A stretch of DNA of 64,000 nt, from assembly GCA_044892525.1 (NCBI GenBank), contig CM097887.1, positions 43,896,001 through 43,960,000 on the forward strand. The letters are read 5' to 3'. The translations under genes were made by a program, and so were the position numbers. The stretch comes from Schmidtea polychroa. Taxonomy: Eukaryota. Below the pieces are notes generated by a model. It was not told where the DNA came from. It made no database searches and saw only the letters and a list, made by a program, of their open reading frames with translations. Positions within the stretch are counted from its first letter, which is position 1, and each line of letters opens with the position of its first letter. Of this stretch, positions 732 to 30,514 are shown piece after piece.

Positions 732-3700
732 TGTTGGGGTTACACCTCGGCTGACCATTCTACCATGTTGGCGGGTCTAAGGGTTGATTGTCCATCTCGA
801 ATAAAAGGTGCCACCGATTTGTCAACCTGGAGTGAAACCCCACATAACTTTCTTCCAACATAGTGCCCGTGAATCACTTCACGTTGGTACTGCACTATGC
901 AGGCGAGACGCCAGCAAGCAGGTGAGCTTCTGCCTTAAAACTACTCCTTGCTGAGGCCTCGACTTCCCATTCACGACTGCCGATAGAAGGGCTTACGTCC
1001 ATTTCCTTACACAACCACCTATCAGGATTCGCTGAATGCAAATTGGGAAATTCTCACTAGATCTTGCGGGTTCTCTACTCAACCCACTTAATTCAAGTCT
1101 AATTATTCATGAACGAAAACGTGTAAGACAACAAGATTTATTAATTTCAACGTTATGACACAAGGATTCAGCTGTACTCTTTACTAATGTTTGTCGAAAG
1201 AAGAGAAAACATCATAATCAACATAGATCGGATCCTTGTTCCTCATCCTGACCGCCACTGGGGTTTTATTGTTTCTCCCATTCAGTGTCGGCGAATAATT
1301 CGTCGAGGTTGAAAAACTCGGAAGCGTTCTCTTCCCACCTTACGCCAGCGGCTGATATGATTCGCGCTGAGGGTCCCGTTGTTAGGTCGATGGACACGTG
1401 AGAGTTGCCACCGTTGGTTGAGTCCTCTATTGATGGGATGTTTGGCTTTGCAGTAGCGCGCTCGCGCTGTCTCTTCTTGCGCTCTGCACGAGAGAGTTGT
1501 TTGCGCTTGGGTTTGCTTGAAGATGCCACTTGCAGAAGGGTGACTGATACAGATGGACTAGCAGTGGGGGGCTTACTGGTACCCGTGATGACAACATCTG
1601 GACGCTTGGGGGACCATTCGGTTTCGACGCAGTCTCGGCACGGTCTCTTGAACGGTGGAGATGGATTCGAGGAAAGGTTGTGATGAGGCGGAAAGATGTC
1701 ATCGGCCTCTCGGATGGGAATCTGCACGATTTTTCGGGTTGTAGCCGCCTGCACGTAAACCTTATGCAGTGCCTCGGATTGTTCTCTGATTAGACTTCTT
1801 TGGGCACGGCTCTCAGATATAAGCGCGTCCCGGCAATGCTCGCTACGATCGAGCTTCTTTTGGATCTCTTTCATCCGAGCGGGACTAAACCATGTCCCTT
1901 CCAGCTCGTCTATCTTCCTCTTGTAACGTCCAATCTGAGTTTGTAGGTCCTTTATCACCGTATTTTTATCCGCGCACGAGAAGCACGGCCGTAATGCTGA
2001 TTTAGTGGTTGGTAGCATGCTTGCTATAAATAATACTAATGAAATGGAGAACATACGATTTTAGAATAAATTAGATACGACCCGCGTCCATTCGTGGATA
2101 CTTGACCGTCGAAAAGGAGGAAAACTTATTCTACAATCCGGTTTTACTACGGATCTTAGTTGTTAAAACAGTTTATTTAACCAAATGCCATCGGTTTGAC
2201 GCATGTTATTAACTTTGACTATCTATTGATCTAACTGTATGCATGAGGGACGTAATAATTGATAGGGTGTAAATATAATATTGGTGAAACAATATAATAA
2301 TGCTTTAGTAGAGGGACATTATAGTATGCGACCAAACCTTGCTATATGTTATCTATTTTAATTTATTAAAAACAAATTACTATCGCTCTCAACATATTTC
2401 TGATTCGAAATTTGTTATTGGAAGTGCACTTTTAATTCGGTAGTGAATGTGATTATCTATGTTGTCTACCATTGGTCTGAAAATATGTGATGAGTTTACA
2501 TCAGCCATTACTTTAACACCCTCATGGAAAATCCCATCGGTCATAACATATATCCAAATTTACGGATACTGCTGTCGACTGGTTGATTACATTATCGACC
2601 TATTGTGAATGTCACGTGTCGCGACTACTATGTATGCTAGTCTGATATTCTGTGCTCTCACCACATGGATTCGTGTATGGCTACTATCTTATCTCACTCA
2701 CTTGGTGTATGCCATTTTCACGGTGATTTTATCGATCCTGCTGTCGTATGATTTTCTCTGCACAGTGATTTATTTGAGTTATGATCTATGCTACCGCCAG
2801 TTCTCATCGCGGAGTTTTACCCTTATCAACTTGTGTGAATGATCACCATCGTTTGGAAATTTATTGGATCTTTTCAGTGATCGTCGAGGGAATAATTCTA
2901 CCAAATACTGGAGCATATTACTACTCTCGTCATTCTACTCGGATTTTCCTATTCAGATGTAATGCCGTCTCGATGAAACCTGTCCTTTTCTCTCAGGTTC
3001 AATAATTTGGATATATACAGTGATGACCTGGCTCTTATTGTAGAAATAAATGTTATTAATTAAATTTGGTGATATTTTACCTGTTTATAATTTTTGAAAT
3101 AACTAAGTCTATAAAACTTTCTGATTATAATATTAGAGAAGTTTTCGTAGAATCTCGCATTTTATAGTTTCGAGTTAGTTAAAGTTTTTAGAATACTTTC
3201 GTAACCTGACATACAATCTGGACAGGTTAGATGACATTGGGTCTATGATAATGGAATTTCATACGAATTTAGTTCTACTGAGTCCGGCAAATAGACGTTG
3301 TCGCAATTAATTTGATAAAACCATGTTTCCAGATGAAGCGTACTATGAGATGTTGTTATTTTTGACGAAGTTCACTAAATCGTGGTCTGGATCTCTTTTT
3401 TCAATAGGGGTAAGACTTACGAAAACGACTTGACGAAAGAAGAATGCGACGCCCTCAATCACTGTGCAAATCCTTGAAAATCCCTTCATTCGTATGACTA
3501 TCTTTGTGAAATCATTGTCTACCGGTTATTTTTTTTATCCATACCCCATTGTGATAATTTAGTCGCATCTTCAGCGATAGGACCCGTGAAGAAGCCTTCA
3601 CATTTCGGCCCAATCTAGCTGCGCGATTGAAATACTCCATGTCCACCGGCTGAGCTCCCGAAGGCACCTCATACCATGACATGGAGTATCTCAACTCCAC

Positions 3701-4574
3701 GTTACTCGTTAAATGAAAATTCATAAAATCTTTAATTCAAATAAAATACGGACATCTGGATAAAAATATTTTATTGATTCTGAAATACTTAAATAATACA
3801 AATTCCATCAATACGTTAAAGTTATTAAAATGGAGAATCAAATGAAGAGAGTTAACTAAAATGTTTAATCGTTAATATTTAACATTATTATTAGCTTTGC
3901 AAATACTTAAATAAATCTATAAACAAATGAAATACCCCTTACTATTGTTAGGCTGAGTCAAAATTCAATGTTGTTCGTTCCAAATAGTTCTAATGGTGGT
4001 CCGTTGGATGTCGATTATTGTGATGAATGGTATTTCGGTCTCTGAACTGGTTTTGAATAGTTGTGGAGTTTTCTGAATGACGGTTGCTTGGCTAGTAGTG
4101 TCGATCCTATGAAATGCTCGGGGTTAACAGTAAGCAGTAAACATTCTTTCTTACCTATGAAATGCTCGGGGTTAACAGTAAATTTAATGTTTTTGGTAGT
4201 TGTATATATATCAAATTCTTATTTGTGCGGACCAATCAGAGTTGAGTACCGCTTATTTCTATTAATTTAATATAATTTTCTTGTTTTTAGGTTGTTTTTT
4301 CCTTATTTTCTTTATTTTTAATATGTTTTTCTATTTATTTCCTTAATTTCCTTATTATTTCTTGAATTCCTCTTTATTTATTTGTCAACTTGTTCTATTT
4401 TAATCTTTTCTTAATTTTATTTTTTTGTTTTAATTCTTATGTCTTAATTATTATTTTCCTTATATCTTATTCTATTTTATTTCTGATTTTATTTATTTTA
4501 TTTTTATTTTTCTTAATGTTCTACTTCCCTACTTTCTTATTTTTCAACGATTAAATTTTCGACTCAGCCCAACA
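732..4574 (-). repeat. 3' LTR (3,843 bp)
   Basis: Matches 26672-30514 wherever compared; every ORF-track protein inside it is reproduced identically at +25,940; 7-bp terminal inverted repeat TGTTGGG/CCCAACA. Confidence 0.97.
1266..2054 (-). CDS. LTR-encoded 262-aa protein (hydrophobic N-terminus, two CxxC, coiled coil, Arg/Lys-rich motif, acidic-aromatic C-terminus); function unknown
   Basis: Intact ORF in the sense orientation of the element; MFSISLVLFIASML, CFSC, CRDC, KPKRKQLSRAERKKRQRER, EFFNLDELFADTEWEKQ. Confidence 0.75.
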   Translation of the reverse strand: MFSISLVLFIASMLPTTKSALRPCFSCADKNTVIKDLQTQIGRYKRKIDELEGTWFSPARMKEIQKKLDRSEHCRDALISESRAQRSLIREQSEALHKVYVQAATTRKIVQIPIREADDIFPPHHNLSSNPSPPFKRPCRDCVETEWSPKRPDVVITGTSKPPTASPSVSVTLLQVASSSKPKRKQLSRAERKKRQRERATAKPNIPSIEDSTNGGNSHVSIDLTTGPSARIISAAGVRWEENASEFFNLDELFADTEWEKQ

Positions 4575-7630: not shown

Positions 7631-9019
7631 TTACTCCGTTCTACCCTTCTCCTCTTTCCTCACGGTCATCTTGATATATATGGTATCATTTCTCGCCATA
7701 TCTTCTACTCTTTGTTGTGAGATGAACGTAGGTGCTCCTGTTGCTGATCCTTCTTCGTTGAGGGGCCTCTGGTAAGCTATTTGATTCCCCGTTGTTTTGA
7801 AGCTTTGCTCATGTATACTTTGGTTGTTCATCAGAGTAATATCGATTTTTGCCTGGAACGGCCATTCTAATATTTCGTCGTATTCTCCTTTACATAACAG
7901 AAAGAAAATCGAAAAGTGCGTATCCAATCCGGTTCCGTCCCCGTTGGGATATACCTTCATTTTCATTTTGTACCCATTTTTCCAAGAATGGAATGTAGGA
8001 CTTGTTATTCTTGTCTCTTCTCCGGTTTTTGCTTTTCGTATTCTTTCTTTTACTCCCGTTATTTTCCATATGTAGGGTGCTGTTGGGGTTATCTCATTTA
8101 GATTTATTTCCCGTATTTTCTGATGTAGCTCCTTGGCCTGATTATTACTGATTTCTGTTCGGTTTATTTGCATCTTTATGTTTGCTCGGGCTTCTTCGAA
8201 CGCTTCCCTTTCTTCTAGTAGTTCTTTGACTAACACTTTCAACGATGTTATCTCTATCTCCATTTGTTTTACTTTCTCTTCGCTTTCTTGTAGCGCAGTC
8301 GACCACATTTCTGCGTGAGTTGAAGCATTTCCTACTAAATGATGTGGTAACTCACCTCGGTGTAGTAGTTTCTGACAACCCCATCTACCTAGTACACATG
8401 TCATTCTTTTCTTTGCGCATTCCCTTAGATGCTGTGCCACCTTCATTATTTCCCCTTGGTTACATCCGTTTGGGCATTCCCCACTGAACTCTGCACATAC
8501 TCTCTCCTCTTGGACATTGTGATGTTTGAGGGTGAGATTTATCCACGTATCTATTTCTCCACAGTATTCACATCTTTCCAATCTCTCTTCACACTGCCTT
8601 TGATGCTCTTTTTCTTCGCTTGCTCGAATGGTTTTATGGCACCTTTCACACTGGCCAATTCTGTACATACATTCTCCCATATGTTGTACTACCTTCCATA
8701 TTACTCCTTTCCATTCGCATGGGGCATTTTTGCATCCCAGGTTGGTGTTTAACATGTCTTTCACTGCGGCTTTATCCTCGTTAGTGTCTTCTAAACTCGA
8801 TATTAGTGTCTCTTTACACACCGGGCACCTCTGTGGTCTATTCTTTATTGCTTCACTGATACATTCTTTACATACTCTGCATCCACATTGCGTTTGGTGA
8901 GGTTCCTTTAACAACTTTTCACATATTCCGCACATAACATGTTTGTGTATTCTGATCGTTGTAGATTTTCGGACTTGCTCGACAATCTCTCTGAACTCTT
9001 CTCTTTGTCGTTTATCCAT
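7631..9019 (-). CDS. TRAF-family protein (RING, TRAF zinc fingers, coiled coil, MATH/TRAF-C), intronless, inside the retroelement
   Basis: CGICEKLLKEPHQTQCGCRVCKEC...CPVC RING; C-x-N-x2-C-x-W-x-G...H-x3-C zinc fingers; YIWKI...SPTFHSWKNGYKMKMKVYPNGDG...HFSIFF...GEYDEILEWPF TRAF-C signature. Paralog cannot be assigned by eye. Confidence 0.93.
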   Translation of the reverse strand: MDKRQREEFREIVEQVRKSTTIRIHKHVMCGICEKLLKEPHQTQCGCRVCKECISEAIKNRPQRCPVCKETLISSLEDTNEDKAAVKDMLNTNLGCKNAPCEWKGVIWKVVQHMGECMYRIGQCERCHKTIRASEEKEHQRQCEERLERCEYCGEIDTWINLTLKHHNVQEERVCAEFSGECPNGCNQGEIMKVAQHLRECAKKRMTCVLGRWGCQKLLHRGELPHHLVGNASTHAEMWSTALQESEEKVKQMEIEITSLKVLVKELLEEREAFEEARANIKMQINRTEISNNQAKELHQKIREINLNEITPTAPYIWKITGVKERIRKAKTGEETRITSPTFHSWKNGYKMKMKVYPNGDGTGLDTHFSIFFLLCKGEYDEILEWPFQAKIDITLMNNQSIHEQSFKTTGNQIAYQRPLNEEGSATGAPTFISQQRVEDMARNDTIYIKMTVRKEEKGRTE

Positions 9020-9104
9020 TCTATAATTATATGTACAAATAGTTCTTATCGATACAGGTTCGATATTTTATTTACAATTATTTACATTTTAAGCTAGGTT
9101 TGGT

Positions 9105-9624: not shown

Positions 9625-10635
9625 CTATATACGTGAGTTTGGAGGGCGCTGAACGTTCCAGGCCTCCACCCACTGTCCTTGTTTGATATCACTTGGTCGT
9701 TTCACTCGATGTTGGAAGTTTCTGATTCGGGTCATTTCTAGTTCTCCGCGATGTCGTTTATCTTTAATTATTTTTATTGTTCCCCCCGTTATGATTAGGA
9801 ATGCCCCTGTTATTATTATCCCACTGATCCACATCATCTGCTTCACGCTTATACTCTCTGGTTTTTCCTTGTTTGTTAATGTTGATATCGCTTCTGTACT
9901 TTTCTCGTTTCCTCTTTTGCCATTTCCTTTCATCATTTCCCGTATTCTTGCTATTTCCTCGTTCATACCCTCCTTTGCCATCTTTTGTATTTTTTCCATC
10001 TCTTCCTCCGAAACATAGTTGTCCTGAGCTTCCTCACCAGTTTTCTTGTGCTTTCCTCCTTCGTTCTTTTCGTCGTGGTTTTTTCTTTTCTTTCCTCTTT
10101 TCCCCGGGTATCGTCGGCATTCTCTTTTTGATTCATTCCTCCAGATACAAACCGTGTATTCTTTCGGCGGCTGCTGCTGCGTCACATATTGATGGCATCT
10201 CTCACCTGGTCCTAATCTTGAAATACAGACTTTGTGCTCTTTTCTAGGTTGGATCTGCGTTATTACTACTTCACCACCTTTTCCTAGGTGTACCTCTTTT
10301 CCTTTGACGTTCGTTATTCTCTTCCCGTCTCGATTTCGGTATGCTTCTTGTATTCTTACTTCTGTTATTGGTTCTGTGTCCTCATTTATCAGTACTAGTT
10401 TCTGATACGCTCTAGACATGCATCTTCCTAGTATGCACCTTTCCTTTAAGTCCCATTCTTCCTTTAAATCCCACTGCTGCTCTTGTGCTTGCTTTCTCTT
10501 TTCTTGTTTTAGTTCATCCTCTTTGCTATCTTGATTCTCCGCTTCTTTGGTTTCTTTTATCGTTCTCGTCCCTCCCTGAGCTGTTACTAACTCTATCATG
10601 GTAAGCATAATTATCATTAATATCATATTTGTCTC
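9625..10635 (-). other. C-terminal type I membrane protein module of the polyprotein
   Basis: Signal-like MILMIIMLTMIELVTAQ (about 10580-10635), Cys-containing ectodomain, TM MMWISGIIITGAFLIITGGTI (about 9775-9840), short basic tail. Confidence 0.65.
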
Positions 10636-13600
10636 TATTTCTTTGTTAGTGAAAGGTAGGCATACCCTCTGTTTTCCATTATTCGATTTTTCCTCCTCTT
10701 TGGTCTTGGTTCTCGGGCTGTTTCCCTCTCTTTTCGTATCCGAATCCTTGTTTTCTGGTTTACCCTCCTCCGGTTCTCTTTTCTCTTTATCCTCCTTTCG
10801 GCCTTTTCCGTTATTGTCATCGTGTTTATCTCCCTCGCTGTCATTTAAAATGTCGTCCTCGACATTTATATCGTTCAATAATCTGCGATATGCTGTTAGC
10901 ACTCTGTTTCTTGCTAATTTTGCTTCGAATTCAAACTCTTTTCTACCCGTTGCAGCATGTCTCTTTCTATTCCATTCTTTAACTAACTCTCTCAATTGCA
11001 TACGACGATGTTTCCCAATTCGTTGTTGCTCGTTCTGATTTTGCGTGAATTTTAGGTCTTCTCTATTTAATACTACTAAAATAATTTTCGGCGTCCCCCC
11101 CTTAGTTAGGGTATTCTTTACCATCGCATTTTCTCCGTTTTCGTAGAATTCGTTTACATTTATCGCATATTTATTATTTGGTGGTACTCTCCAGGTTAAT
11201 AATAATTTCATTGCTTCTAGATTTTTCCGTACCGTATTCCATTGAAACTGAGATGTGTTTTTGCACATATTTTCAACTTCTTCTTCTGTCGCATTTTTGC
11301 AAATAAATCTGATCATTTCTAAGTTTGGCTGTATGGTTGCCCAGTCCAAGGTGGAATTTCCTTCATTGGACCTTTCGTCTAGTTTCGATCCTGATTGATG
11401 TAGGATGTGGAGTGTTTTTGGGTGTATTTTCGTTATAGCTGCATACATCATGGCGGTTTCACCTTGTTCATTTTTCGTGTTGGTTTCCTCGCCCATCTCC
11501 CCAAGGATTCTCATGATCGTTATTGCTCTATTCTCTTTTGCAGCTAGTATTGCTTGTTGTAGGGGTGTTCGGGAATCCTTCGTTACCATCGTAAATGCTC
11601 GAGGCAAGAAGGTTTTGATTTTCCCGATATCTAAACCCGTGGTTTGATCTCTTGCGTATGTGTGTACGGCTTTTATTATTTTGGACAATATTATTTCGTC
11701 TGGCAGCTCTAGCATTTCCTCAAAGAACACTTCTTTTGCTTTGCGTATTATTGCCTCTTGATCTATACTCATTGATTTGGTTTCGATGACGTTGTTTGTG
11801 ACCGTTCGGTTCGTTGTTGACTTTGATTCCCTGGATTTCTCATACCTTATTTTCGTTTTCTTTCCGTTTGGATTATTGATTCGTTCCTCTGCTGTAAGTA
11901 TTTGGATAATATCCATGTAATTCTCGCGGATGTTATTCATCGTGTCCATCATATATAACACACTTACTGTTTCCCAATATTTATGTCGTACTTGGTTAGT
12001 AAATTGGAATAGTGATTTTTCGAATGTGTCGATTCGCTTTTTTGTTAACTGTTCGTCTTTGTGATTTGTGAATTTTATCCCTCGTTCTAGTAATTGATTC
12101 GGGATTTCGAATAAATGATGTCCTTTCATAGCTTCTCTCATCAGCGTGTTCTCTCCTCTCGTGAACGCTTCGTTTACGTTGATCATATAATCGTTTCGAA
12201 TTGGATTTCTCCATGTAATTAATATTCCGGTAATTGTCGTCAGTTTTTCTTTGATCGCTGTTAGCAATCCATCATACATGTTTCCGACTTCCCGATTGTC
12301 CTCATATGATAGTAGTTCCATCAATGACGTGAACGCCTCGGTACTTCTCCCTCTGATAGCATGATGTAGAGCGTTTTTCCGCTCGTGGTCTTGTGTAGTT
12401 ATTTTCGATCCGGTATCGAGTAATGCGGTTATAATGTCTTTTGTTTTGCCTCTGTTTGCGGCTATCATTAATGGTGTGTAACCTTGGTTGTTTGTTTGTT
12501 CTGTTGATCGCTTGCAGTCGTGAAATGCTTCTATTGTTTCTAGTATTTGCTCGTTGTTACCTACTTTCATGAGTTTGTGTAATGGTGTGTCTCCGTAATG
12601 ATCTGTTATTGTAAATAATATTGGCCATTGGCTTTTGACTACTCGCAATAATGGGTGTGTCCTTTCTCTATTTGCATAGTTCTCGATCATCGTCAATAAT
12701 CCTCCTAATATTTCGAAATCTAATCGATCTTTTGCCCATCCAGGTATTTTAATTTTTACCTCTTTTACAATCTTTTCCGCTTCTGATGGTTGGATACCTA
12801 ATCGTCCAGTGATCGGTTCTGCGAGTTGTTGCATCATGTTCATTCGGTAGGTTTGCGAACGTGTGGTTAATGTACGGCCTTCTGGTTGACTAGTGGCTGT
12901 TTTTGGAATTGATTTGCATCGTGCCACGTTTACGTATATTGGTCTGGTAAAGGGGTTATTTACCAATTTCACTCTTACATTAGTTTCGCCTACGAATAAG
13001 ATCTCATATGGTCCTTTTCCGTTGCGTTGTAACTTTTTTGTGGTTCCTGGAATTAATTCCGGGGTTTCTATCATTACCCAATCACCTGTTTGGAACGTAT
13101 GTTGCTTCACGTTTTTCTTTCGATCGTGTAAATCTTTATAACTTTCCTGGTAGAACTTGATATTTAATCCCGCAGTTTCCCAAATTTCTTGCATTCTTTC
13201 CTTGAATTTCGTAACATAATCATCGATCTCCATATACTGCGATATCGGTGGTTGGTATTCCAGGTCCATTGGCATATTACATTCTCTTCCGTACATTAAT
13301 TTGAATGGGCTCATTTTCGTTGATGCGTGAATCGACATTCTGTACGCCATAAGACATAGGTTTATATATTCGTCCCAATCTCGTTGGTGACGGTCAACGT
13401 AGTTTGATAACATTTGTATAAGTGTTCCATTAAATCTTTCCGTCATCCCATTGGTTTGAGGGTGGTATGGAGATGTTCTTAGTTTTGCTATTTTGAAGTA
13501 ATTTGTTACTTCGCTCATTATCTCACTCATAAAATTTGTTCCCTGATCGGTTAAGATTTGTTTTGGTGTTCCATATCGGCAACATATCTCTTCTACCAAA

Positions 13601-16600
13601 ATATTTGCGATTGTTTTAGCTTTTTGGTCTGGCATCGCGAATGCTTCTGAGAATTTCGTAAGAAAGTCTGTGATCACCAGAATGTAAACGTTTCCTTTAT
13701 CTGACTCTGGTAGTGGACCAACTACGTCCATGGATATCATTGTCATTGGTTCTATTGGTACTGGCATTGGCGTTAAAGGTGCTTTCCATTTCGATCCCGT
13801 ATTCTTCCTGGTTGCACAAGTTAGACAATTTTTTACCCATTCGGTTACATCTTCCGTTAACGTAGGCCAAAAATATTTCTGTTTCATTCTTGCTAACGTC
13901 TTTTTCGATGACATATGTCCTCCCAATCTCCCATCGTGATATTGCGTTAGTAACTCTTTTCGTCGGTTTTCCGGTATACACATTAATCGTTTTTCCCCAT
14001 CCATTATCAGCAACCAATCTTTCTCTATAATATATCGGTGTCGGTGTTTATCCATATGTTCTTTTAATTTTTGGTCTTTCGCATATACATCTGTCTGTCC
14101 GGTTTTTATATAATCGATAATTTGTTTTAATTCCGCGTCCTCTTGTTGGTCCTTTCGCAATTGACAGAAATCCAAATCTTCCGCTACTATTAAGCATATG
14201 CGTTGCATTTCTGAATCCACCAAATCTGGGAAAATAAATCTTGACATACAATCGGCGTTGGCATTTGCTCTTCCCGCTTTAAATTTTATAAATGGGGAGT
14301 ATTCTTGCAATTGCATGGCCCATCTCATCAGTCTACTGGACGCTTCTTTATGTTGCCCTAACCACACTAATGGTTGATGGTCTGTGGTTATGCATATCTC
14401 ATGTCCCCATAGTAAATATCGGAAGTGTTTGATAGCTTGTATTATAGCCAATGCTTCTCGTTCTGTTACCGAATAGTTCTTTTCGTGCTTTTTGAATGTT
14501 CGACTGTAATACCCGATTACTCTCTCTTTTCCCTCATCGTCCAATTGTCCCAGAATCGCGCCTGCCGCGTACCCGCTTGCATCCGTTGCCAATAGAAATG
14601 GCCTCTTAAAATCTGGGTGTACGAGGATAGGTGCTTCGATTAGTTTGTCTCTCAGCGTTTCAAACGCCTCTTGTTGTTCCTTCCCCCATAAGAACGAAAT
14701 GTCCTTCTTTACTAATTCCTGGATTGGTTTTGCAATTCCTGCATAATTTTTGATAAATTTGCGATAGTATCCGCATAATCCTAGAAATTCCTGAACTTGG
14801 GTGACAGTTTTCGGTGCTGGACATGTTTTTATTTTCTCAATGTTTCTTGGATCTGGCTCCTTTCCTTTAGCTGACACTATGTGTCCTAAAAACGTGACTT
14901 TTTCCTTTGCCCAATCGCATTTTGATGGTTTGAGTTTGAGTTTCCACTGTCTTAATCTAATAAATACGTTTCGGATATCTTCTAGATGTTGTTCAAATGT
15001 CGCTGAATAGATTAGTAAATCATCAATATATACCATACATTGTTTGATTCCATGGGTGACAAAGTTCATACACCGTTGAAATGATGCTGGTGCGTTAGTC
15101 AGTCCAAATGGCATTTTCCTGAATTGATATAGATCTCGTCCCAACGTGAAAGCTGTTTTCTCTTTGTCCTCATCTTTGACTTTAATCTGCCAGTATCCAC
15201 TTTTTAGATCTAAAGAAGTAAAATATGCTGCCCCTTGCAACATCAATAACATCTCATTGATGTCCGGCAATGGGTAGGTATCTCTCTTGGTCACTGCGTT
15301 TAACTTCCGATAATCGATACAGAATCGTTGGGTGCCATCTTTCTTTTTTACCATGACCACTGGGAATTGCCAGGGTGAGCAACTTGGTTCGATTACTTTT
15401 GCGTCTAGCATCTTTTGTACTTCTGTTTCGGCTATTTCTTTCTGCATTTCTGCTAGCTTGTATGGTCTCAATGCAATTGGGGTTTCGTCTATGAGTGGTA
15501 TTGCATGTAAGGTAACATCACATGTACCCAAGTCTAAATCTGAGATGGCGAATATATCTTTATATTCTACCAACAATCGGTGCAATTTTTTCTTTTCATC
15601 ATTCGTCAACAACATACTATCCATTGTCCATAATTCATCATCTTTGATCATCTCGTTGGTCACTTTCGGTAATTCTATGTCCATCATTGGGGTCAATCTT
15701 CCCAATTTTTCGTTCTCATAAATGATTTTGTCTTCCTCTTCGAAATTCGTGATGTTGAGCGGTATCACTCCTTCTTGGTTTATTGTGATTATTTCTCTTG
15801 CGAGTGGTAATTCTCGTCGCTTTTCAAATGACTTGCTTGGTTCAAAGATAACTTCTCCTTCCATACCCGTATCCACTTTTATCTGACAAATCATCTGTGA
15901 TTTTGCTGGTACTATTATTTTTTCTGGACATCTGATGACTGCATTCATTTTGCATATTCTACCGGTTTTGTCTTTTAAACACATGGTTGTTAAGTCAATT
16001 ACGACTTCTTTTAACAATTCTGGCATCAAATCCGTTCCGATTATGCATGGTACGCTAAGTTTTGGTATTACTGCCAAATACGTTTCAATTTCGTTGTCCT
16101 GGTATCTCAATGTAGTCCACCATCTTCCGACCACGTCCACTGTTTCTTTACTACATGCTATGATGTGAATTGTTGTTGATTCGATATCCTTCCAGTGTTT
16201 ACTGGGGATTTGATTAATCGCTATCGCTGATACATTAGCTCCGGTGTCTATCATAGCATTGGTTTCTTTACCATTGATTTGAATCATAACTGTTACTGCT
16301 GGACCTCCAGGTAAACTCATCGCTGCTATTGTTCTTACGTCATCTGCTTGATCTACACTTTTGGTACGTCGTGTTGGCATATAATGCATACCGGGTTGAC
16401 TCGGTAATTGCGGATACATATTTTGTGTCATGGTCAAAGCTGCTTGTGGTCCCACGATATCCGGTGGTATATAGCTTCCATTGGCGATCCAGGTGTTTGT
16501 CTTTTCCTTTTCCCAATATGGTGCCGTTTCCATTGGTTTTTCGTTTGGGTTTCTGTTTGGATAAAGACATTTATCGTTCCCGTTATCATCGTCGTCACTA

Positions 16601-19600
16601 TCGCTGTTAGATGATTGGCTTCTAAATCGGTCCAAGAATTTTGGCTTATTCTTTTTCAATTGTCGTCTTGTTGCTTCATCGTACATTACTTTCCGGAATC
16701 GTCTGCCTACTTCCTCGTCGGTTCCTTTAATCTTTGTTAATATTTTAATCAATCGCTTTATCCGATGAATGTCTTTTGAGTGGCCATGTAATACCATGGT
16801 CTTAGCTAAAAATGGTAAGAAGCCTACTATCATTTTCCAATTAACTTTCTTTTCCCGCTTGTATATATCGAAACAAGCTAACATTTGTGTTAGTATTACT
16901 CTGACTATCTGAATTATGAGTATGATCCCTAATATCCCGGCCATCATTTGTCCAAAAACTAAGAATCTTCCCCACATTGCTTTCATCATGTTTGACGTAG
17001 CTTGTTGAAAATGGTCTGGCGATAATAGCAGCTCGTAATTCGGGCCTGATTGATAGTTTGTGCCCCCAGTTATTGTTACCATATTAGACAAAATGGATTC
17101 TCGTCTGGCTGGGAAGAGTACGTTAAGTCGTGCTGTTTCTAGATCTTCTGGGGAATACATACCACCGTTTGACACGTCTATAGGTTTGAAATCCAGCTCT
17201 GTGGCGAGTTCTATTAATCCAAATTTCTTGGGCTCCTCGGATATGGTTTTTCCCGGTAACATCATCCATTTCCCATCGGGCCTTTCATATAAAGGTCCGT
17301 ATGCATTAGAACAGTTAAAGAGATTTGGGTAGAAACCCACTGGATTCATAATTCTAGTGACTGGTTGGACGAATCGATTTTGTCCTTTATAACGGATTTC
17401 TAATTCATTTGCACATCTCTTTTCGGGTAGTATGGATTTTTCTGGCATTCGTGCATACGTCTTGGTACACTGGTATGTGTACATCACTTCTCCTACCATT
17501 CTACCAAAGTGTCCATCTGGTAATGGGAGTGATGGCATCGTGTTATCTGGGTGCGTTATCGCAATAGCTAGCTTTGTTTTCAATATTTCTTTATTCAATG
17601 AACAATCGTTTTGTATTAGATCGTAATATACTTTTTGCAAGGTCGTTTGTCCGCGATGAAATAGAAAATCCATTTTATTATTTGCATATAAGTATAGTTT
17701 TACGTCCTCCGTTGCTATCTTTCCCACTGCTCTATCGATTATTTGTCTCGACATATAGATACCTGCGTAATTGGTTTTATATACTATACTGTCACATTTG
17801 GTGGTTTCTTTCTCTTTGATAAATCTCATACCTAGATCTGGATCGTCTGTGATTAATGCTGTTGGTGTCTTCTGCGTTGAAAGTCTCTTTTCTCTGGGAG
17901 ATGGTGGCATTGGTTTTCCATTTCGCATTCTCACTCTGTCGTTTCCATCCTCGTCGTTCTCATTCTCATATATTTCTCCTTTTACTTCATTGAACAAAGC
18001 ACTTTTTAACAGTTGGAGTCGGCATTTTTGGGTATTAGCTTCATAGATTATAGTTGATACTCCTGTCCTGCATACGTTTTCTGTAGCTCTACACGTTGGG
18101 TTGGTCTTCATTTGGTAATTATTTGCGTCAAATTGCGCTTCGTATTCTTTTAATTCGACCGTGTAAGACTCGATCACTACAACTCCCGATATTACCTCGC
18201 CTCGGATCGTATACGTACCTCCGTTACATGACCCATCTGATGATTTTACTTTTCCGGATACGTAAACACTTTCGGTTTTAATCATTCCAGTTTGTCCGTG
18301 AATTGTCACTCCGTTATGCATTTTTAGCGCTCCGGTTCTAAATAGCTCTTTACAATCCTCTCGTTGTATTGATACGATTTCTTTATCCAGACCGGGTAGT
18401 ATAAGAGTCGAATACGAATATTGTCCACAGTAATATGCGAGTACCTTTTTTGATACTACGCATTCCCTTGCTTGCGTTCTGATGAAATCTGATTCTTGAT
18501 ATACATGGTAAGTAACTTTTGTTCTCACGATGTCCAATTTGTTGGGTGAGGCTTGTCTGCATTCTTCTATGTCTCTCAATGAGTATTTATCTCTCATTAT
18601 CATGTTATCACAATCGTAGATGGTGAAACCTGTTGCTCCACTTGTGCACAACATCCATATCATCATAGTCATCATTAACGAATTTATTGATGCTTTTCTG
18701 CTTGCGGGATCTTTCATCGGTAGTTCCCATTCTAGTTCATTTAACAGTTTTTTCAATCTAACTTGCATCGACCTTTCTTGCTCATTTTTCCGTGGCGCTT
18801 GTATCAGTCTTTTCCATCCTCCTGCACGAATAATGTGTGGTTCAATAGTATTCTCTATGATTGAAACGGTCATTTCTACATGATTTGCAAACTGTTTATT
18901 TGGTATTTTCCTCGCAGCTAGTCCCATCAAATTATACATCAAATAAGTGATTACCACTAGGTGATGCTCGTCATCATTTGCATTTGTCGTGAGCTGCTCA
19001 ATCACTCTCTTTGTTTCGTCCCAATCCGTTTTGGTGGTTTTCGTTTTCTCTTTGATTAACTTTGGGATTATCCCCGAAATGGTGTGCCATAATTGTCTAG
19101 CTTCCGTACTGGCTACTTTCCGTTGCCACAAACGTCTAAGTTGTGGGTTTGTTATTATTAACATATCTTTTAACAATTCTCGTATCCATTTTTCTCCTCT
19201 TTCGATCGTTGGTTGGGCTTCCTTTAGATCCCATACTATTTTATCCAATTTTTCTAATCGAACTTGCCCTTGTTCTTGCTTTAATTGTTCTTTGGTTTTG
19301 AACTCAGACTTTTCTCCTTGTTTCTTGGGTCTTCCTTTTGCCCGTTTTTCCATCATCGTTCCGGCTTCTCTGGTATTTTCGTAATTCGGATTTCTTTCGT
19401 TATCCGTTCTGGGTAATGAGCTATCGTTATTTCTTAGCCACTCATTCCATTCGTCTATTATTTTGTCGGTTTGACTTTCTGGTGTTACTTTCGTTGGTTC
19501 TCTTTGCTTCTGGAATTGTTCATCCGTTTCGGTTTCCGTAGTATTGTCGATGATTTCTTTGATGTTCAGTTTCGTTGGTTGTTGATAACTCGTTGATGGC

Positions 19601-22600
19601 TGGTTATTAGTCCACATTTCGGCTCCTGTCGGCCATCTCACTAATAGCGGTGATCTTTCTCCTGGTTCATCGTCACTATCTTCCAGGATTATCTCTTCAA
19701 CTTCTTCAGTTTCATTAGATTTACTTGGTGCTTTGTTCGGACTTGGAGTACTCAAACTGCCTTTTGTTGGTTTAATAATTTTACTTTTCCTTTTTAACGG
19801 TTTTCCCAACGTTTCTGCCATTGTTAATACATTTGTCTCTTCCAATCTCATGGGGGTTATCCCGACGTCTGCATTATCGTCTAGTGATTTTCCGAACAGT
19901 TGCAGATGGAATGGAGTTTCATATGCTAATTCCTTTTTTAATTCTCTAATTTTTGTTGTTGGATGCACCTCTAGTTCCTCGATGCTCTTGTCTGGATACT
20001 TGATTCGGATGTGATACCTCTCCTGGGTGTCTTGTGCCCATTCCTGATTTCTCCATTTTCGAATAATTTGTTCTAGCTGTTCTGGATACCATTCATTATA
20101 TTGCCGGTATTCCTCTATTGCCTTTGCCATTCCTCTCAGATTGTGGATGTCCTCTGATGTCTTTAAGATGATGTTAGCCAACGCTACTACTTGGCGTCTT
20201 TGATTTTTCGCTCCCATTGCTAAGATATCGCCTAATTGTTTATATCTTTCTTTCTCTTCTCGTTCTCTTGCTTCCGTCGCTTCCTCGCCGTCCATATCAG
20301 CATATTCACGTTCCTTTTTCCTCATTGCATGAATATGTCTCGCTTCATTTTCGCTTTCTGATGTGACATCCGTCTCGCCTTCGTCATCTGATGTCTGTTC
20401 CCTTGCTTCCTCTTCATATTTTGGAGGTTCCTCTTCTTCTTCCTCCGATTCACTTTCTGTCTCACCAATGTCTGTTTCCACGAAGGTTCCTTTCCGGATT
20501 TCCCATTCCTTACTTTCTGCATTCCACACTCTTTCCCATGGGGTTCGTCTGCAGGATCTGGTGCTTAATTTCGTGATTTTTCCTTGTAGTTCTTTTTCTT
20601 TTAACCATTGTTGGTGGATTTTAATTATTTCCGTAGATTTTTGATATAACGTTTTCATCCGGTCTCGTATTTCTTTTTGATAGGTTACATCTCTTGTTCG
20701 AAATTCATCCATTGGTACTATCCTGATTATCTGGTGATTGTCCCACATACCCATTTCGCTTAACGAGGTGTCGTCCTCCGCTCGTAATATTATCTTATCG
20801 TACATCATGACTACATCATCCACCATACCATCACTACTTTCGCTACGTACCTTTTCCGTTATCTCTTGGTTTATTTTTGATACCAAGTCATCTACTGTAC
20901 TCTGATTGCTCATTTTTATTCGTCGTTTTTCTTCGTTCGGTAACCATATGGTTATTTCCAACCTCTGTGGCTGGGTTTCTTTTAACCTTCCATATTTGTG
21001 GATCAAATTTATGGTTCTCCAATCACTCATTCGGAGCATTTCTGTATCTCGCAACCGGCTCATTAGTTCGTACATGGCTGGGGCTCGTCTGGTGATGAGT
21101 AAATCCCAGTTGTCTTCTACTTGTTCTTGAATTTGTTTGATCAGCTTATCCAGGTTTCGTCTCAGAGTACATTGTTTTATTTGTTCTAATTTCAATTTGA
21201 TATTAAAATCATATTCTGCCTTGGCATCTTTAGCCCAATCGTAAAGGTTGGCTGGTTGTTTTTCTTTATGCAACTTCAGTATTTGCGTTTCTCCTGGCCA
21301 TATTAGTGCATCTACTAAGTGCATATCTGGTTTGATCTGTTCTCCTTGGTATTGATACAGATATTCTTTCTTTCTCGAACTTCCCAAATGCTCTCGTATC
21401 CAATCGAAAAGTTCGTCGGTGACTGTATTTTTTATCCACATTCTTTCAAGTCCTCTACTCGTTCCGATTTTTATTACATACCGCGTGGTATCGGCCTGCT
21501 TCATTTTTTCCATATAATTTTTTATAATTGATTTTTCCTCGTTTGGTATTAAATCTTTCTCGTTTCTTTCCAATTTCATCACTTTTTGCACGAATCGCCT
21601 GAATGGTATTACGTCAATGAACTCTTGGTTCCTCACTACTACTGGGAGTATTTCCGCTACTTGTTTTATCGCTTCCTCCTTCCCTTTTCTCAACTTTATT
21701 TCGATATCCTCGTCTTCACTTTCGCTGGTTATCTCGCTTTCGCCTTCTTCCTCTTTGATTTCCCCTTTTGGAGGTTCGCTTATTTCATTCAGCTGTAGTA
21801 TTTCTCCACCCAAACTACTTACATAGTCTTCTTCCTCGTCTGACGATGCTACATCTTTTGTCCTTTTCATCATATTGATTTGCAAGTTTCTCATCCTTGG
21901 TACTCTCTTTAGTTTCTTTCTTTCGAATATCGTTGTTTCTTCTGATTCTAATTCCTGTAGCATTTGGTGGTTTAGTTGACTGGTTTGTTCCTTGCTCTTG
22001 TTATTTTCATCTTCTGTCTCGGCTTTCGCTTTATTATGTTCTTTTTCGATTTTATCTTTTATCTTTTTCCAGAATATTTTCTGAATTCTCTGGTTTCCTT
22101 TTAAAATCGTGGTTGAATTCTCTGTTTTCATTTCCGTTGTTATTTCTTTTACCTTTTCTGGTTCAGTCATGGGTACTACCCTTGGGCTTTTCCCGTAATT
22201 GTAGCAATACTGGCTCTTCATGTCTTTTACTAACTTCATCATATTTATTCGCAATGGTTGTTCTTGTCGTTGTTGGTTGCGTTCTTGTTTTATCCTCTCT
22301 TCCTCGGCCTGTAGCCTTTGCCATTCTTGTACATGTTGATGCACTTCATAATTGTTGAGATTTTCGGTACTCCTCATCATACGTATATTCTGGGTTTGTT
22401 GTGGTGCTGATTCTTGTCTTGGTCTCATCATTTGTTGCATCATCTGTTTCATCTGCGAAATTTCCTGCATAACGTTCATTTGTTTTCCTTCGTTAGGGTT
22501 ACTTTGTCGTTGCGGATTCGCTATATAATTATTATTTCGCTGTGGTGGTCGTTGTTGTTGGCCCCTTTCTCGGCAATCTCTGGAGATGTGACCTGGCTGA

Positions 22601-23478
22601 CCACAGTTAAAACAGCCTCGCAATTGGCATACATTTTCGGTATGTCCACGCCGTCCGCAACGATTACAATTTGAATTTCTATAACAATCTCTGTCCCAGT
22701 GTCCTGGTTTACCGCATGTTCGGCACTGCTTGTTATCGTTCATATTTCGCCGATTATTGAAATTGTTCTCATTATTCGGGTTGTTACGATTACCATTATT
22801 CCCGTTTGATCGTCCTTGTGGTGGTTTGAAAATTTGGTGCGCTCCTGGTATAAATTGATTCATTTTCGGTTCTTGATTGTTGTTATCTCCGTTATCCGCT
22901 TTCGCTATTGCTGTCGCTATCCTTCCCTCCTCTTGCATAATATTCATTTGAGCTGGAAGGTGGAGCTCGCATCTTGTAGCCCAATCTATGGCTTCCTCTA
23001 ATGTTTTGCACATTTGACAACCTACTGAGGCTCTTACTTCTTCTCGGCGTAATCCCTCTATGAAATAACCGATCAGATTTTCTTCGGGTAATTTTCCATT
23101 CATTGCTTTCTTCGCTAATCTCCGCAATTCACTGGCATATAATGTTATCGATTCGTTTGCTCTTTGTTTCCTATTTGCTAGTTCGCCCAACGCCTGGTTG
23201 ATTGGCTTACTGGCTCCGAAGGTTTTCTTCAGGAATGTTTTAATATCTTCCCACTTTTCTAATTTCGTGTCTCTCTCTTTAGCTTCTAAATATACCTCTA
23301 ATGCACTATCGCACAAAAACAACGGCATCCTTTTACTAATTGCTTCGGGTGTCCATCCACACACAGTGATATAAACTTCAAAATTAGTTATGAACGATGC
23401 TAGCTTGTTTGCGTTTCCGTTGAACGGTTCTCCTCTGAACTTCTCTTTATACTCGTCGGTTTTTACGACATTCGTCAT
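9625..23478 (-). CDS. 4,617-aa Gag-accessory-Env-Pol-accessory polyprotein
   Basis: Single uninterrupted ORF containing CA-like region, CCHC knuckles, DTG protease, YIDD RT, TDAS RNase H and HHCC/DDE integrase, plus the extra domains listed separately. Confidence 0.97.
   Translation of the reverse strand: [4617 protein letters not shown]
11085..12625 (-). other. Two ankyrin-repeat modules downstream of integrase
   Basis: [30 protein letters not shown]; then [29 protein letters not shown]. Confidence 0.85.
12910..13945 (-). other. Integrase (HHCC, DDE core, GPY/F C-terminus)
   Basis: HDGRLGGH...CLTC; [38 protein letters not shown]. No chromodomain seen. Confidence 0.96.
14240..15480 (-). 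other. Reverse transcriptase and RNase H
   Basis: [96 protein letters not shown]. Confidence 0.97.
15960..16310 (-). other. Retropepsin aspartic protease
   Basis: [12 protein letters not shown] ... IIGTDLM. Confidence 0.95.
16780..18690 (-). other. Envelope-like class III fusion glycoprotein (chuvirus G / herpes gB-like) with internal signal peptide and TM anchor
   Basis: Signal [18 protein letters not shown] then FTIYDCD...YSLRDIEEC...YYCGQYSY...DGSCNGG...C-x6-C Cys pattern typical of chuvirus-type G; TM [25 protein letters not shown] at about 16880-16970. Confidence 0.8.
18796..19263 (-). other. Bcl-2-like domain (BH2-like motif clear, BH1 degenerate)
   Basis: All-helical segment ending [15 protein letters not shown] (BH2 consensus WIxxxGGWxxF); [22 protein letters not shown] sits at BH1 spacing but lacks NWGR. 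Confidence 0.55.
19820..21485 (-). other. Three ubiquitin-like domains (about 21270-21485, 20710-20963, 19820-20016)
   Basis: Beta-grasp pattern, e.g. [30 protein letters not shown]...[14 protein letters not shown] and [30 protein letters not shown]...[11 protein letters not shown], which parallel ubiquitin [30 protein letters not shown]...LIFAGKQLEDGRTLSDYNI. The first copy is the weakest. Confidence 0.65.
22570..23478 (-). other. Gag: capsid-like region plus three CCHC zinc knuckles
   Basis: [18 protein letters not shown] (major-homology-like); [42 protein letters not shown] at about 22570-22730. Confidence 0.9.
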
Positions 23479-25843: not shown

Positions 25844-26329
25844 TCATTCGCCATAATAGACCATATGGGTCTCTTTTATTTCATATTTGCACATCGTGCA
25901 TCTTTTTAGGTCTTTTACACACTCTTCACAGTGACTGAGGTGTCCACACGGCAAGAATAATACGCGAATAGGACGGAGTTTGCAGGCTATACAAGTTCGT
26001 AATTGGTTAACTTTTTCCTGTATTTTTTGTTCGATTGCATCTGGTATTGTATTTAGTGAGTCTTTTAGACGCTGATAATCTAGATTTAATGTTGGGTGGT
26101 TCAATCTCTCTTGATACCACTGATATACGGTTTCGGGGTTTATTTTTCCATCTGGGCGACTTAGGCCTGTGGCTAATATCATATGATTAGGTACGACTGG
26201 TGTTTGTCCGATTGCTTGCAGTAATATCGCGTTGATTTTTTCTCTTTTATGCGTCAGTGTTGTTAGGGAGTCGTTTTCTATATCGATAAACTTGAGCAGT
26301 TGTTGCATTTGGTTCGCGAATTCTGTCAT
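25844..26329 (-). CDS. 161-aa protein with C-terminal IAP/XIAP-type C3HC4 RING, no BIR domain
   Basis: CIACKLRPIRVLFLPCGHLSHCEECVKDLKRCTMCKYEI at the extreme C-terminus, preceded by helix QKIQEKVNQLRT. Confidence 0.85.
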   Translation of the reverse strand: MTEFANQMQQLLKFIDIENDSLTTLTHKREKINAILLQAIGQTPVVPNHMILATGLSRPDGKINPETVYQWYQERLNHPTLNLDYQRLKDSLNTIPDAIEQKIQEKVNQLRTCIACKLRPIRVLFLPCGHLSHCEECVKDLKRCTMCKYEIKETHMVYYGE

Positions 26330-26646
26330 AGCTGTTGGAAAAGTAATGTTTTAATAATATGTAGTAAATTAATAGTTAATTCGTTAATTGGTTTCTTTAA
26401 CCATTGTTAATTATTTAATTTGACTACTTTATCTCCTTTATTTATATATATCCTTAATTTTTCTATTATCTACATTTTGATTTTCTCTACTTAGTTCCTA
26501 ATATAATTTAATAATCAATAGTCACTTTGCATTCGTCAAGCAATGGTCGGTTGAAAATAGAAAATCGATGTGATAAATCCCTTTAATTTTGTATGAAAAT
26601 CCCGGTGAATTTCGCATTCGTTAATAGAAATTTCGATCGACTGTAG

Positions 26647-26664: not shown

Positions 26665-26671
26665 AAAATCA

Positions 26672-29600
26672 TGTTGGGGTTACACCTCGGCTGACCATTC
26701 TACCATGTTGGCGGGTCTAAGGGTTGATTGTCCATCTCGAATAAAAGGTGCCACCGATTTGTCAACCTGGAGTGAAACCCCACATAACTTTCTTCCAACA
26801 TAGTGCCCGTGAATCACTTCACGTTGGTACTGCACTATGCAGGCGAGACGCCAGCAAGCAGGTGAGCTTCTGCCTTAAAACTACTCCTTGCTGAGGCCTC
26901 GACTTCCCATTCACGACTGCCGATAGAAGGGCTTACGTCCATTTCCTTACACAACCACCTATCAGGATTCGCTGAATGCAAATTGGGAAATTCTCACTAG
27001 ATCTTGCGGGTTCTCTACTCAACCCACTTAATTCAAGTCTAATTATTCATGAACGAAAACGTGTAAGACAACAAGATTTATTAATTTCAACGTTATGACA
27101 CAAGGATTCAGCTGTACTCTTTACTAATGTTTGTCGAAAGAAGAGAAAACATCATAATCAACATAGATCGGATCCTTGTTCCTCATCCTGACCGCCACTG
27201 GGGTTTTATTGTTTCTCCCATTCAGTGTCGGCGAATAATTCGTCGAGGTTGAAAAACTCGGAAGCGTTCTCTTCCCACCTTACGCCAGCGGCTGATATGA
27301 TTCGCGCTGAGGGTCCCGTTGTTAGGTCGATGGACACGTGAGAGTTGCCACCGTTGGTTGAGTCCTCTATTGATGGGATGTTTGGCTTTGCAGTAGCGCG
27401 CTCGCGCTGTCTCTTCTTGCGCTCTGCACGAGAGAGTTGTTTGCGCTTGGGTTTGCTTGAAGATGCCACTTGCAGAAGGGTGACTGATACAGATGGACTA
27501 GCAGTGGGGGGCTTACTGGTACCCGTGATGACAACATCTGGACGCTTGGGGGACCATTCGGTTTCGACGCAGTCTCGGCACGGTCTCTTGAACGGTGGAG
27601 ATGGATTCGAGGAAAGGTTGTGATGAGGCGGAAAGATGTCATCGGCCTCTCGGATGGGAATCTGCACGATTTTTCGGGTTGTAGCCGCCTGCACGTAAAC
27701 CTTATGCAGTGCCTCGGATTGTTCTCTGATTAGACTTCTTTGGGCACGGCTCTCAGATATAAGCGCGTCCCGGCAATGCTCGCTACGATCGAGCTTCTTT
27801 TGGATCTCTTTCATCCGAGCGGGACTAAACCATGTCCCTTCCAGCTCGTCTATCTTCCTCTTGTAACGTCCAATCTGAGTTTGTAGGTCCTTTATCACCG
27901 TATTTTTATCCGCGCACGAGAAGCACGGCCGTAATGCTGATTTAGTGGTTGGTAGCATGCTTGCTATAAATAATACTAATGAAATGGAGAACATACGATT
28001 TTAGAATAAATTAGATACGACCCGCGTCCATTCGTGGATACTTGACCGTCGAAAAGGAGGAAAACTTATTCTACAATCCGGTTTTACTACGGATCTTAGT
28101 TGTTAAAACAGTTTATTTAACCAAATGCCATCGGTTTGACGCATGTTATTAACTTTGACTATCTATTGATCTAACTGTATGCATGAGGGACGTAATAATT
28201 GATAGGGTGTAAATATAATATTGGTGAAACAATATAATAATGCTTTAGTAGAGGGACATTATAGTATGCGACCAAACCTTGCTATATGTTATCTATTTTA
28301 ATTTATTAAAAACAAATTACTATCGCTCTCAACATATTTCTGATTCGAAATTTGTTATTGGAAGTGCACTTTTAATTCGGTAGTGAATGTGATTATCTAT
28401 GTTGTCTACCATTGGTCTGAAAATATGTGATGAGTTTACATCAGCCATTACTTTAACACCCTCATGGAAAATCCCATCGGTCATAACATATATCCAAATT
28501 TACGGATACTGCTGTCGACTGGTTGATTACATTATCGACCTATTGTGAATGTCACGTGTCGCGACTACTATGTATGCTAGTCTGATATTCTGTGCTCTCA
28601 CCACATGGATTCGTGTATGGCTACTATCTTATCTCACTCACTTGGTGTATGCCATTTTCACGGTGATTTTATCGATCCTGCTGTCGTATGATTTTCTCTG
28701 CACAGTGATTTATTTGAGTTATGATCTATGCTACCGCCAGTTCTCATCGCGGAGTTTTACCCTTATCAACTTGTGTGAATGATCACCATCGTTTGGAAAT
28801 TTATTGGATCTTTTCAGTGATCGTCGAGGGAATAATTCTACCAAATACTGGAGCATATTACTACTCTCGTCATTCTACTCGGATTTTCCTATTCAGATGT
28901 AATGCCGTCTCGATGAAACCTGTCCTTTTCTCTCAGGTTCAATAATTTGGATATATACAGTGATGACCTGGCTCTTATTGTAGAAATAAATGTTATTAAT
29001 TAAATTTGGTGATATTTTACCTGTTTATAATTTTTGAAATAACTAAGTCTATAAAACTTTCTGATTATAATATTAGAGAAGTTTTCGTAGAATCTCGCAT
29101 TTTATAGTTTCGAGTTAGTTAAAGTTTTTAGAATACTTTCGTAACCTGACATACAATCTGGACAGGTTAGATGACATTGGGTCTATGATAATGGAATTTC
29201 ATACGAATTTAGTTCTACTGAGTCCGGCAAATAGACGTTGTCGCAATTAATTTGATAAAACCATGTTTCCAGATGAAGCGTACTATGAGATGTTGTTATT
29301 TTTGACGAAGTTCACTAAATCGTGGTCTGGATCTCTTTTTTCAATAGGGGTAAGACTTACGAAAACGACTTGACGAAAGAAGAATGCGACGCCCTCAATC
29401 ACTGTGCAAATCCTTGAAAATCCCTTCATTCGTATGACTATCTTTGTGAAATCATTGTCTACCGGTTATTTTTTTTATCCATACCCCATTGTGATAATTT
29501 AGTCGCATCTTCAGCGATAGGACCCGTGAAGAAGCCTTCACATTTCGGCCCAATCTAGCTGCGCGATTGAAATACTCCATGTCCACCGGCTGAGCTCCCG

Positions 29601-30514
29601 AAGGCACCTCATACCATGACATGGAGTATCTCAACTCCACGTTACTCGTTAAATGAAAATTCATAAAATCTTTAATTCAAATAAAATACGGACATCTGGA
29701 TAAAAATATTTTATTGATTCTGAAATACTTAAATAATACAAATTCCATCAATACGTTAAAGTTATTAAAATGGAGAATCAAATGAAGAGAGTTAACTAAA
29801 ATGTTTAATCGTTAATATTTAACATTATTATTAGCTTTGCAAATACTTAAATAAATCTATAAACAAATGAAATACCCCTTACTATTGTTAGGCTGAGTCA
29901 AAATTCAATGTTGTTCGTTCCAAATAGTTCTAATGGTGGTCCGTTGGATGTCGATTATTGTGATGAATGGTATTTCGGTCTCTGAACTGGTTTTGAATAG
30001 TTGTGGAGTTTTCTGAATGACGGTTGCTTGGCTAGTAGTGTCGATCCTATGAAATGCTCGGGGTTAACAGTAAGCAGTAAACATTCTTTCTTACCTATGA
30101 AATGCTCGGGGTTAACAGTAAATTTAATGTTTTTGGTAGTTGTATATATATCAAATTCTTATTTGTGCGGACCAATCAGAGTTGAGTACCGCTTATTTCT
30201 ATTAATTTAATATAATTTTCTTGTTTTTAGGTTGTTTTTTCCTTATTTTCTTTATTTTTAATATGTTTTTCTATTTATTTCCTTAATTTCCTTATTATTT
30301 CTTGAATTCCTCTTTATTTATTTGTCAACTTGTTCTATTTTAATCTTTTCTTAATTTTATTTTTTTGTTTTAATTCTTATGTCTTAATTATTATTTTCCT
30401 TATATCTTATTCTATTTTATTTCTGATTTTATTTATTTTATTTTTATTTTTCTTAATGTTCTACTTCCCTACTTTCTTATTTTTCAACGATTAAATTTTC
30501 GACTCAGCCCAACA
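26672..30514 (-). repeat. 5' LTR (3,843 bp)
   Basis: Second copy of the LTR; followed on the minus strand by the PBS, so it is the 5' LTR. Confidence 0.97.
27206..27994 (-). CDS. Second copy of the LTR-encoded 262-aa protein
   Basis: Translation identical to 1266-2054. Confidence 0.75.
   Translation of the reverse strand: MFSISLVLFIASMLPTTKSALRPCFSCADKNTVIKDLQTQIGRYKRKIDELEGTWFSPARMKEIQKKLDRSEHCRDALISESRAQRSLIREQSEALHKVYVQAATTRKIVQIPIREADDIFPPHHNLSSNPSPPFKRPCRDCVETEWSPKRPDVVITGTSKPPTASPSVSVTLLQVASSSKPKRKQLSRAERKKRQRERATAKPNIPSIEDSTNGGNSHVSIDLTTGPSARIISAAGVRWEENASEFFNLDELFADTEWEKQ

Follow-up and report, generated by a model that had tools for sequence, protein, structure and literature searches.

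Giant Gypsy-like LTR retrotransposons of planarians are known under the names Burro and GYPSM1, and the BCL2-like motif that they carry was noted by Grohme et al. in 2018 (PMC6431247, citing Jurka 2007 and Grohme). In the section of the same source that deals with Burro, the region between BCL2 and the protease is described as an in-frame env matching mononegavirus glycoproteins (PMC6431247). The presence of a Bcl-2-like domain before an in-frame env in Burro has been in print since 2018-2019 and is not new; signal peptide, topology and anchoring are not discussed in that section (section 7 of PMC6431247). Beyond planarians, errantiviruses with a GAG-ENV-POL order and a gB-type env have been reported in Platyhelminthes, Nematoda and Bryozoa (PMC13524379), in a paper whose main text does not mention Bcl, Burro, Schmidtea or planaria. 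As to the biology of these elements, BURRO1 transcripts were visualised by FISH after PIWI knockdown (PMC8532177), and a 2026 study, as cited in PMC13465017, attributes protection of stem cells against apoptosis to a BIR-RING cargo of Burro1. An ER-tethered Bcl-2 piece generated via signal peptidase was not found in the literature searched; Grohme et al. (2018), the 2026 Burro1 paper or the supplements may describe the junction.

The window analysed here, a stretch of 64,000 nucleotides from Schmidtea polychroa, contains an element that matches the planarian Burro elements, being assigned to them by size, ORF and domain order, and that is a young Gypsy LTR retroelement of 29.8 kb (Table 1). 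Both 3.84-kb LTRs are identical, and AAGG stands on either side of the element (728-731 and 30515-30518) as a 4-bp target-site duplication, so the insertion is recent; copies of the element in its own genome share 96-100% identity in 120/120 scored matches (the best 120 of 1,901 candidates). According to Pfam, the polyprotein is made, in this order, of Gag, zinc knuckles, inserts, the Bcl-2-like domain, envelope, protease, RT, RNase H, integrase and ankyrin repeats, the Bcl-2 match in the scan of the whole polyprotein being weak (aa 1484-1555, E 0.064). This is the Burro-type architecture, with about 30 kb, LTRs and a single giant ORF running gag/BCL2-like/env/protease/RT/RNase H/integrase/ankyrin. 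The locus shares with Burro/GYPSM1, as presented in the Burro section of PMC6431247, the length of about 30 kb, the one huge ORF, a Gag with three zinc knuckles, the BCL2-like motif, the in-frame env, the ankyrin repeats and the TRAF/MATH cargo, and differs from the published Burro in that the TRAF gene is here a separate downstream ORF and the polyprotein counts 4,617 aa instead of the 4,873 aa given there. In the errantiviruses the gB-type ectodomain lies between a signal peptide and a TM helix, or between two TM helices (PMC13524379); similarly, the ectodomain has here a hydrophobic segment before it and a TM helix after it.

Table 1. Features of the element and of the Bcl-2-like/envelope junction, in positions of the window.
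Feature	Position	Strand	Basis
3' LTR, 3,843 bp, TG...CA	732..4574	-	identical to 5' LTR
Accessory TRAF-like ORF, RING and MATH domains	7631..9067	-	Pfam
Polyprotein, 4,617 aa, one ORF	9625..23478	-	ORF list and Pfam
19-residue transmembrane helix closing the envelope, aa 2178-2196	16891..16947	-	hydropathy 2.53
Envelope ectodomain, chuvirus/gB-type glycoprotein, PF24664	16969..18627	-	Monjiviricetes fusion glycoprotein, E 5e-70
C-region, polar, small residues at -3 and -1; signal peptidase predicted to cut after aa 1617	18628..18645	-	inspection
12-residue hydrophobic h-region, aa 1600-1611; start of the glycoprotein family model	18646..18681	-	hydropathy and PF24664
Basic n-region of the predicted signal peptide	18682..18717	-	inspection
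Charged linker, partly helical (predicted), nearly invariant among subfamilies	18718..18801	-	codon comparison and predicted model
BH2-like motif with GGW, aa 1545-1559	18802..18846	-	alignment to Bcl-xL
Bcl-2-like core, aa 1428-1559	18802..19197	-	Pfam PF00452, 15.9 bits, E 0.02
BH1-equivalent segment, NWGR position = DEHH	18940..18993	-	alignment A1 and Bcl-xL alignment
Basic GRP motif (presumably AT-hook-like), directly upstream of the Bcl-2-like domain	19318..19344	-	similar motif in family B
Accessory RING-finger ORF	25844..26329	-	PF13920, E 3e-11
5' LTR	26672..30514	-	identical to 3' LTR

Several further features were observed in the window. A 74-bp tandem repeat of about 7 copies (24749-25274) lies in the leader that separates gag from the RING ORF, and a primer-binding-site-like sequence, which we take to resemble a tRNA-Pro site, lies just inside the 5' LTR (~26645-26665, minus strand). 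Two minus-strand ORFs, at 4804-5472 and 27206-27994, have N-terminal hydrophobic segments, the latter being inside the LTR and present twice, and two charged coiled-coil-like ORFs of 258 and 370 aa are found at 5513-7495 (minus strand), none of these having a Pfam match above the cut-off. At 21518 an untemplated T run in two contigs of run X6 may mark a poly(A) end downstream of gag, or reflect a nearby A-rich tract. On the plus strand, at 36140-38194, there is also a truncated pol of Gypsy type (protease, RT, RNase H), separate from the large element and unrelated to it.

The Bcl-2-like domain is contained in a stop-free translation of 212 aa on the minus strand (18628-19263), corresponding to polyprotein residues 1406-1617. 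Taken alone, the window segment stays below the PF00452 cut-off (15.9 against 31.4 bits), while the scores of its sister families, in which BH1 and BH2 are more clearly preserved, run from 23.6 to 29 bits, and one copy, with 32.2 bits, exceeds the cut-off. The genome-wide PF00452 search gave many matches of about 29 bits inside long ORFs; among the 14 such loci examined, the glycoprotein follows immediately downstream in 11, one (L066) carries the same domain without the glycoprotein and two are not elements of this type. From these loci family B was defined, and family C was defined from a search with P0002, the only relative returned by a full HMMER search. A profile of the sister families, from which the window family was excluded, recognises the window segment with 26.5 bits along some 120 aa, whereas the best of 500 shuffles reaches 8.4 bits, and for this reason the match at GGW, a motif that occurs once in the whole polyprotein, is not coincidental. 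Pairwise BLAST of the window segment with family B is weak (E 0.005). A profile built exclusively on eight element sequences (A1) matches Bcl-xL with an E value of 2.8e-4 along 72 ungapped columns, from helix 4 to BH2, and 59 of the 60 matches listed for it are Bcl-xL or Bcl-2 constructs. On this profile homology the Bcl-2 likeness of the domain is real, as the preliminary description of this DNA had proposed from a BH2-like motif that is indeed found at aa 1545-1559, and as had already been published for Burro.

Word-indexed protein searches found no relatives, and the ESM Atlas search gave no usable match. Among the candidates discarded, a metagenome match (L109) proved to be a 22-residue chance match within an unrelated gene, a ribosomal L17 match, the only one that the segment gave with phmmer against the PDB (E 1.1), was attributed to chance, and the Pfam L17 match on the same stretch (E 0.025-0.058) was rejected, the sister families not matching L17. 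In the tree, from which rows L041 and L044 were left out, the Bcl-2 domains of the elements group together, but the grouping has a support of only 85/91 and joins long branches, so that no donor is claimed.

The motifs by which Bcl-2 proteins are recognised are unequally preserved. GGW is invariant in 16 of 16 aligned rows and BH2 is kept in all four lineages (the window family, families B and C, and P0002), in the form Trp-Ile-x3-GGW, with the first Trp replaced by His in the window family. By contrast, the NWGR of BH1 is absent in the four lineages, reading NRDK in family B, NGDK or NGDR in family C and DKSR in P0002; the loss is most complete in the window family, whose BH1 had rightly been called degenerate. 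An upstream BH3-like helix (aa 1407-1418) is without Gly-Asp. The Gly and Arg of NWGR contact BH3 ligands, and with NWGR fully lost in the window family canonical BH3 binding is doubtful there, so that a canonical BH3-binding anti-apoptotic activity appears, from the sequence, rather improbable. A Bcl-2-like domain put to another use, which is considered below, is about as likely.

The fold itself was approached through predicted models, from whose input the host Bcl-2 sequences (alignment A3) were excluded in order to avoid circularity. The single-sequence AlphaFold model of the segment is of low confidence (pLDDT 46.2) and had no Foldseek match in the PDB at E <= 0.001; the model based on an alignment of 16 element sequences is likewise of low confidence (pLDDT 52.6), and Foldseek against the PDB or BFVD gave nothing at E <= 0.001, an adintovirus Bcl2 being placed at rank 7 with E 0.84. 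In a wide structural search with a low-confidence model, seven Bcl-2-family chains appear in the top 50 of 48,161, aligned within model residues 11-145, with Z-scores of 5.8-6.8 that are level with those of unrelated helical bundles, for which such values are common; the best Bcl-xL match is at rank 5 (Z 6.8, rmsd 2.2, 74 aligned).

These results bear on a stronger reading of the domain, as an anti-apoptotic vBcl-2 that binds BH3 ligands and is held in the membrane by a tail anchor shared with the envelope. The homology of the domain and the seven structural matches are in its favour, as are the further cell-survival cargo of the element (TRAF-like and RING) and the report that the IAP-like cargo of Burro1 protects stem cells (cited in PMC13465017); yet Gly and Arg are gone from the groove motif, the structural scores tie with those of unrelated bundles and the hydrophobic segment is, by homology, glycoprotein-derived, which together make this a quite unlikely reading.

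Constraint on the domain is evident at the codon level. In 6/6 subfamily comparisons the Bcl-2 core has dN values of 0.024-0.057 with dS above 1 or saturated, as expected under purifying selection, and the charged linker counts 0-3 replacements and 15-19 silent changes over 35 codons. Purifying selection spans the whole polyprotein, and therefore does not single out the Bcl-2 domain. Poxviral Bcl-2-fold proteins act as innate-immune or NF-kB adaptors, and the Bcl-2-like domain of the element may similarly have been repurposed, either as an innate-immune/NF-kB adaptor or as a membrane-proximal spacer holding Gag by the envelope during assembly. That the groove motif is lost yet the domain constrained, that TRAF-like and ankyrin cargo reside in the same element and that the linker hardly varies would fit such a role, against which stands the retention of BH2 in all four lineages; it is a doubtful proposal when taken by itself, about as likely as canonical BH3 capture, and it differs from the explanation preferred below in function, being compatible with it on topology.

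Downstream of the domain, the order of features is common to the window family, families B and C and P0002: GGW leads into the charged linker, which gives way to a basic stretch and the hydrophobic core; a short polar stretch then closes with a small residue, and YDC, the motif that opens the glycoprotein, comes next. The preliminary description had placed a hydrophobic segment before the glycoprotein N-terminus, and it is found there, with the glycoprotein beginning at aa 1618; the gap, put at about 35 aa, is actually 40 residues after the motif quoted and 44 after the Trp of GGW. At a hydropathy threshold of 1.5 the core in the window passes over 11 residues and fails over 15 and 19, and the junction segment is not among the three 19-residue spans of the polyprotein that pass the same threshold. 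A pass at 11 residues only fits the core of a signal peptide, unlike the TM helix that closes the envelope. By inspection, all four lineages display the layout of a signal peptide, with a basic n-region, a short core, a polar c-region and small residues at -3 and -1, the residue at -1 being Gly or Ala in 12/13 junction rows (the families of alignment A4 and P0002) and Ser in L089, which is outside A4. In 4/4 lineages the PF24664 match starts on the hydrophobic core, at model position 3-4; since the glycoprotein model begins on the core, the segment came with the envelope gene.

The hydrophobic tails of Bcl-2 proteins offer a second term of comparison. In free-standing Bcl-2 genes of the same genome the tail begins 25 (L041), 25 (L046) and 18 (L048) aa after BH2 and has basic residues at its end, whereas in the elements the segment lies 41-50 aa from GGW and has no basic C-terminal flank. 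The tails of the free-standing genes are also short, so core length alone cannot separate a signal peptide from a Bcl-2 tail. On these grounds the segment is very probably the envelope's own internal signal peptide. The earlier proposal of a dual-use segment holds in so far as the layout and the start of PF24664 point to a signal peptide; the idea that it is also the expected Bcl-2 TM anchor is not supported as descent, and any anchor would have been borrowed through gene fusion and not inherited as the tail of Bcl-2.

The same genome harbours, in multiple copies, Bcl-2-like genes that are free-standing and have a hydrophobic tail of their own (L041-L046, L048-L055), some of them apparently with a short intron and some arranged in inverted pairs 7-9 kb apart. 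A further group of seven near-identical Bcl-2 genes (L026-L032; G000:C4, 89.9-90.8 Mb) has NWGR intact and no in-frame hydrophobic tail.

The reading that we prefer, with a probability of roughly 0.6, is that of a Bcl-2-like/envelope junction with an internal signal peptide, at which the predicted cleavage would leave the part from Gag to Bcl-2 tethered, at least briefly, to the ER on its cytosolic side. In this model Gag and the Bcl-2-like domain would be synthesised in the cytosol, and the internal signal peptide would then thread the envelope into the ER lumen until the second helix (aa 2178-2196) stopped transfer, so that Pol would stay cytosolic. A cut by signal peptidase after aa 1617 would leave the segment on the upstream product, and the protease of the element would trim the upstream part. 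Such a tether would have been acquired through gene fusion, as a replacement for the original tail of Bcl-2. A stable membrane anchor on a Bcl-2-containing product is a more tentative proposition, somewhat short of even odds from the sequence features. Unlikely, at present, is the further step in which a captured Bcl-2 exchanged its tail anchor for the envelope signal peptide, giving one ER-anchored Bcl-2-like protein per envelope and coupling particle production to the suppression of death or immune signalling in the host stem cell. Near the end of the polyprotein, a Met-rich signal-peptide-like segment (aa 4285-4303; 10570-10626, minus strand) and a TM helix (aa 4548-4563; 9790-9837, minus strand) are also observed, and suggest a second membrane protein that may be released likewise.

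The tether could be short-lived. In flaviviruses, for the capsid, and in HCV, for the core, the upstream protein is released by a second cut, and the segment of the element may likewise be a signal peptide and nothing else, the Bcl-2-like domain being freed in soluble form by the element protease or by signal peptide peptidase. A core of only 12 residues would agree with this, and so would the Ile-Asn followed by a Ser-Leu run before the core, which resembles other domain borders (it is one of 13 sites matched by a post hoc regex, for which shuffles give 4.8). Because a weak protease-like site precedes the core, the Bcl-2 domain could be released; in a matrix built from six border sites, however, this candidate ranks 197 of 4,609, a rank within the 3-494 of the left-out true sites, and families B and C have neither the Asn there nor a regex match. 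Soluble release is a possible outcome of lesser probability, clearly below even odds, and tethering through the internal signal peptide is retained as the leading interpretation.

An altogether different route to the envelope would be a spliced or subgenomic RNA with initiation at an upstream Met, in which case the segment would be an ordinary N-terminal signal and never an anchor. In the window (aa 1588), in families B and C and in P0002, a Met does precede the predicted cut by about 30 residues, but it is replaced by Leu in L080 and L081, a subfamily with open frames of 4,811-4,812 aa, and by Thr in L089, and the reading frame stays open across the junction, with selection acting on it, which renders this route very unlikely.

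With regard to the tethered product, a natural variant is provided by a deletion derivative of family B, whose two loci (L066 and L098) lie on separate contigs and share one junction. It is without the signal, the envelope and Pol, and its Gag and Bcl-2 are in an open frame that runs into another TM segment. The derivative indicates that the segment can be lost together with the envelope, and says little on function. In the 1,673-aa frame of L066 (L066:1798-6819) an exonuclease-like stretch is seen by eye, none being found by Pfam.

What is new here in respect of published Burro elements is the anatomy of the junction, conserved in four lineages, together with a testable model of its processing, and it amounts to a modest mechanistic refinement. 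If the tether were real and functional, a second pro-survival Burro product would stand beside the IAP-like cargo already reported. When compared with Bcl-xL, PF00452 and the viral Bcl-2 proteins, the domain has in common the ungapped alignment from helix 4 to BH2 and the conserved GGW; it departs from cellular and viral Bcl-2 in having no NWGR, in the His at the first Trp of BH2 and in being inside a polyprotein, as well as in a hydrophobic segment that is about twice as far from BH2 and is followed by a lumenal c-region, instead of by basic residues and a stop.

The closest parallel to the proposed topology is found in the anchored capsid of flaviviruses and in the HCV core, where one segment anchors a cytosolic protein at its C-terminus and also serves as signal peptide for the glycoprotein that follows. 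A real and functional tether would, in the same manner, have one short segment serving two proteins, with the difference that the upstream protein is a capsid in those viruses and would be, in the retroelement, a captured host apoptosis regulator.
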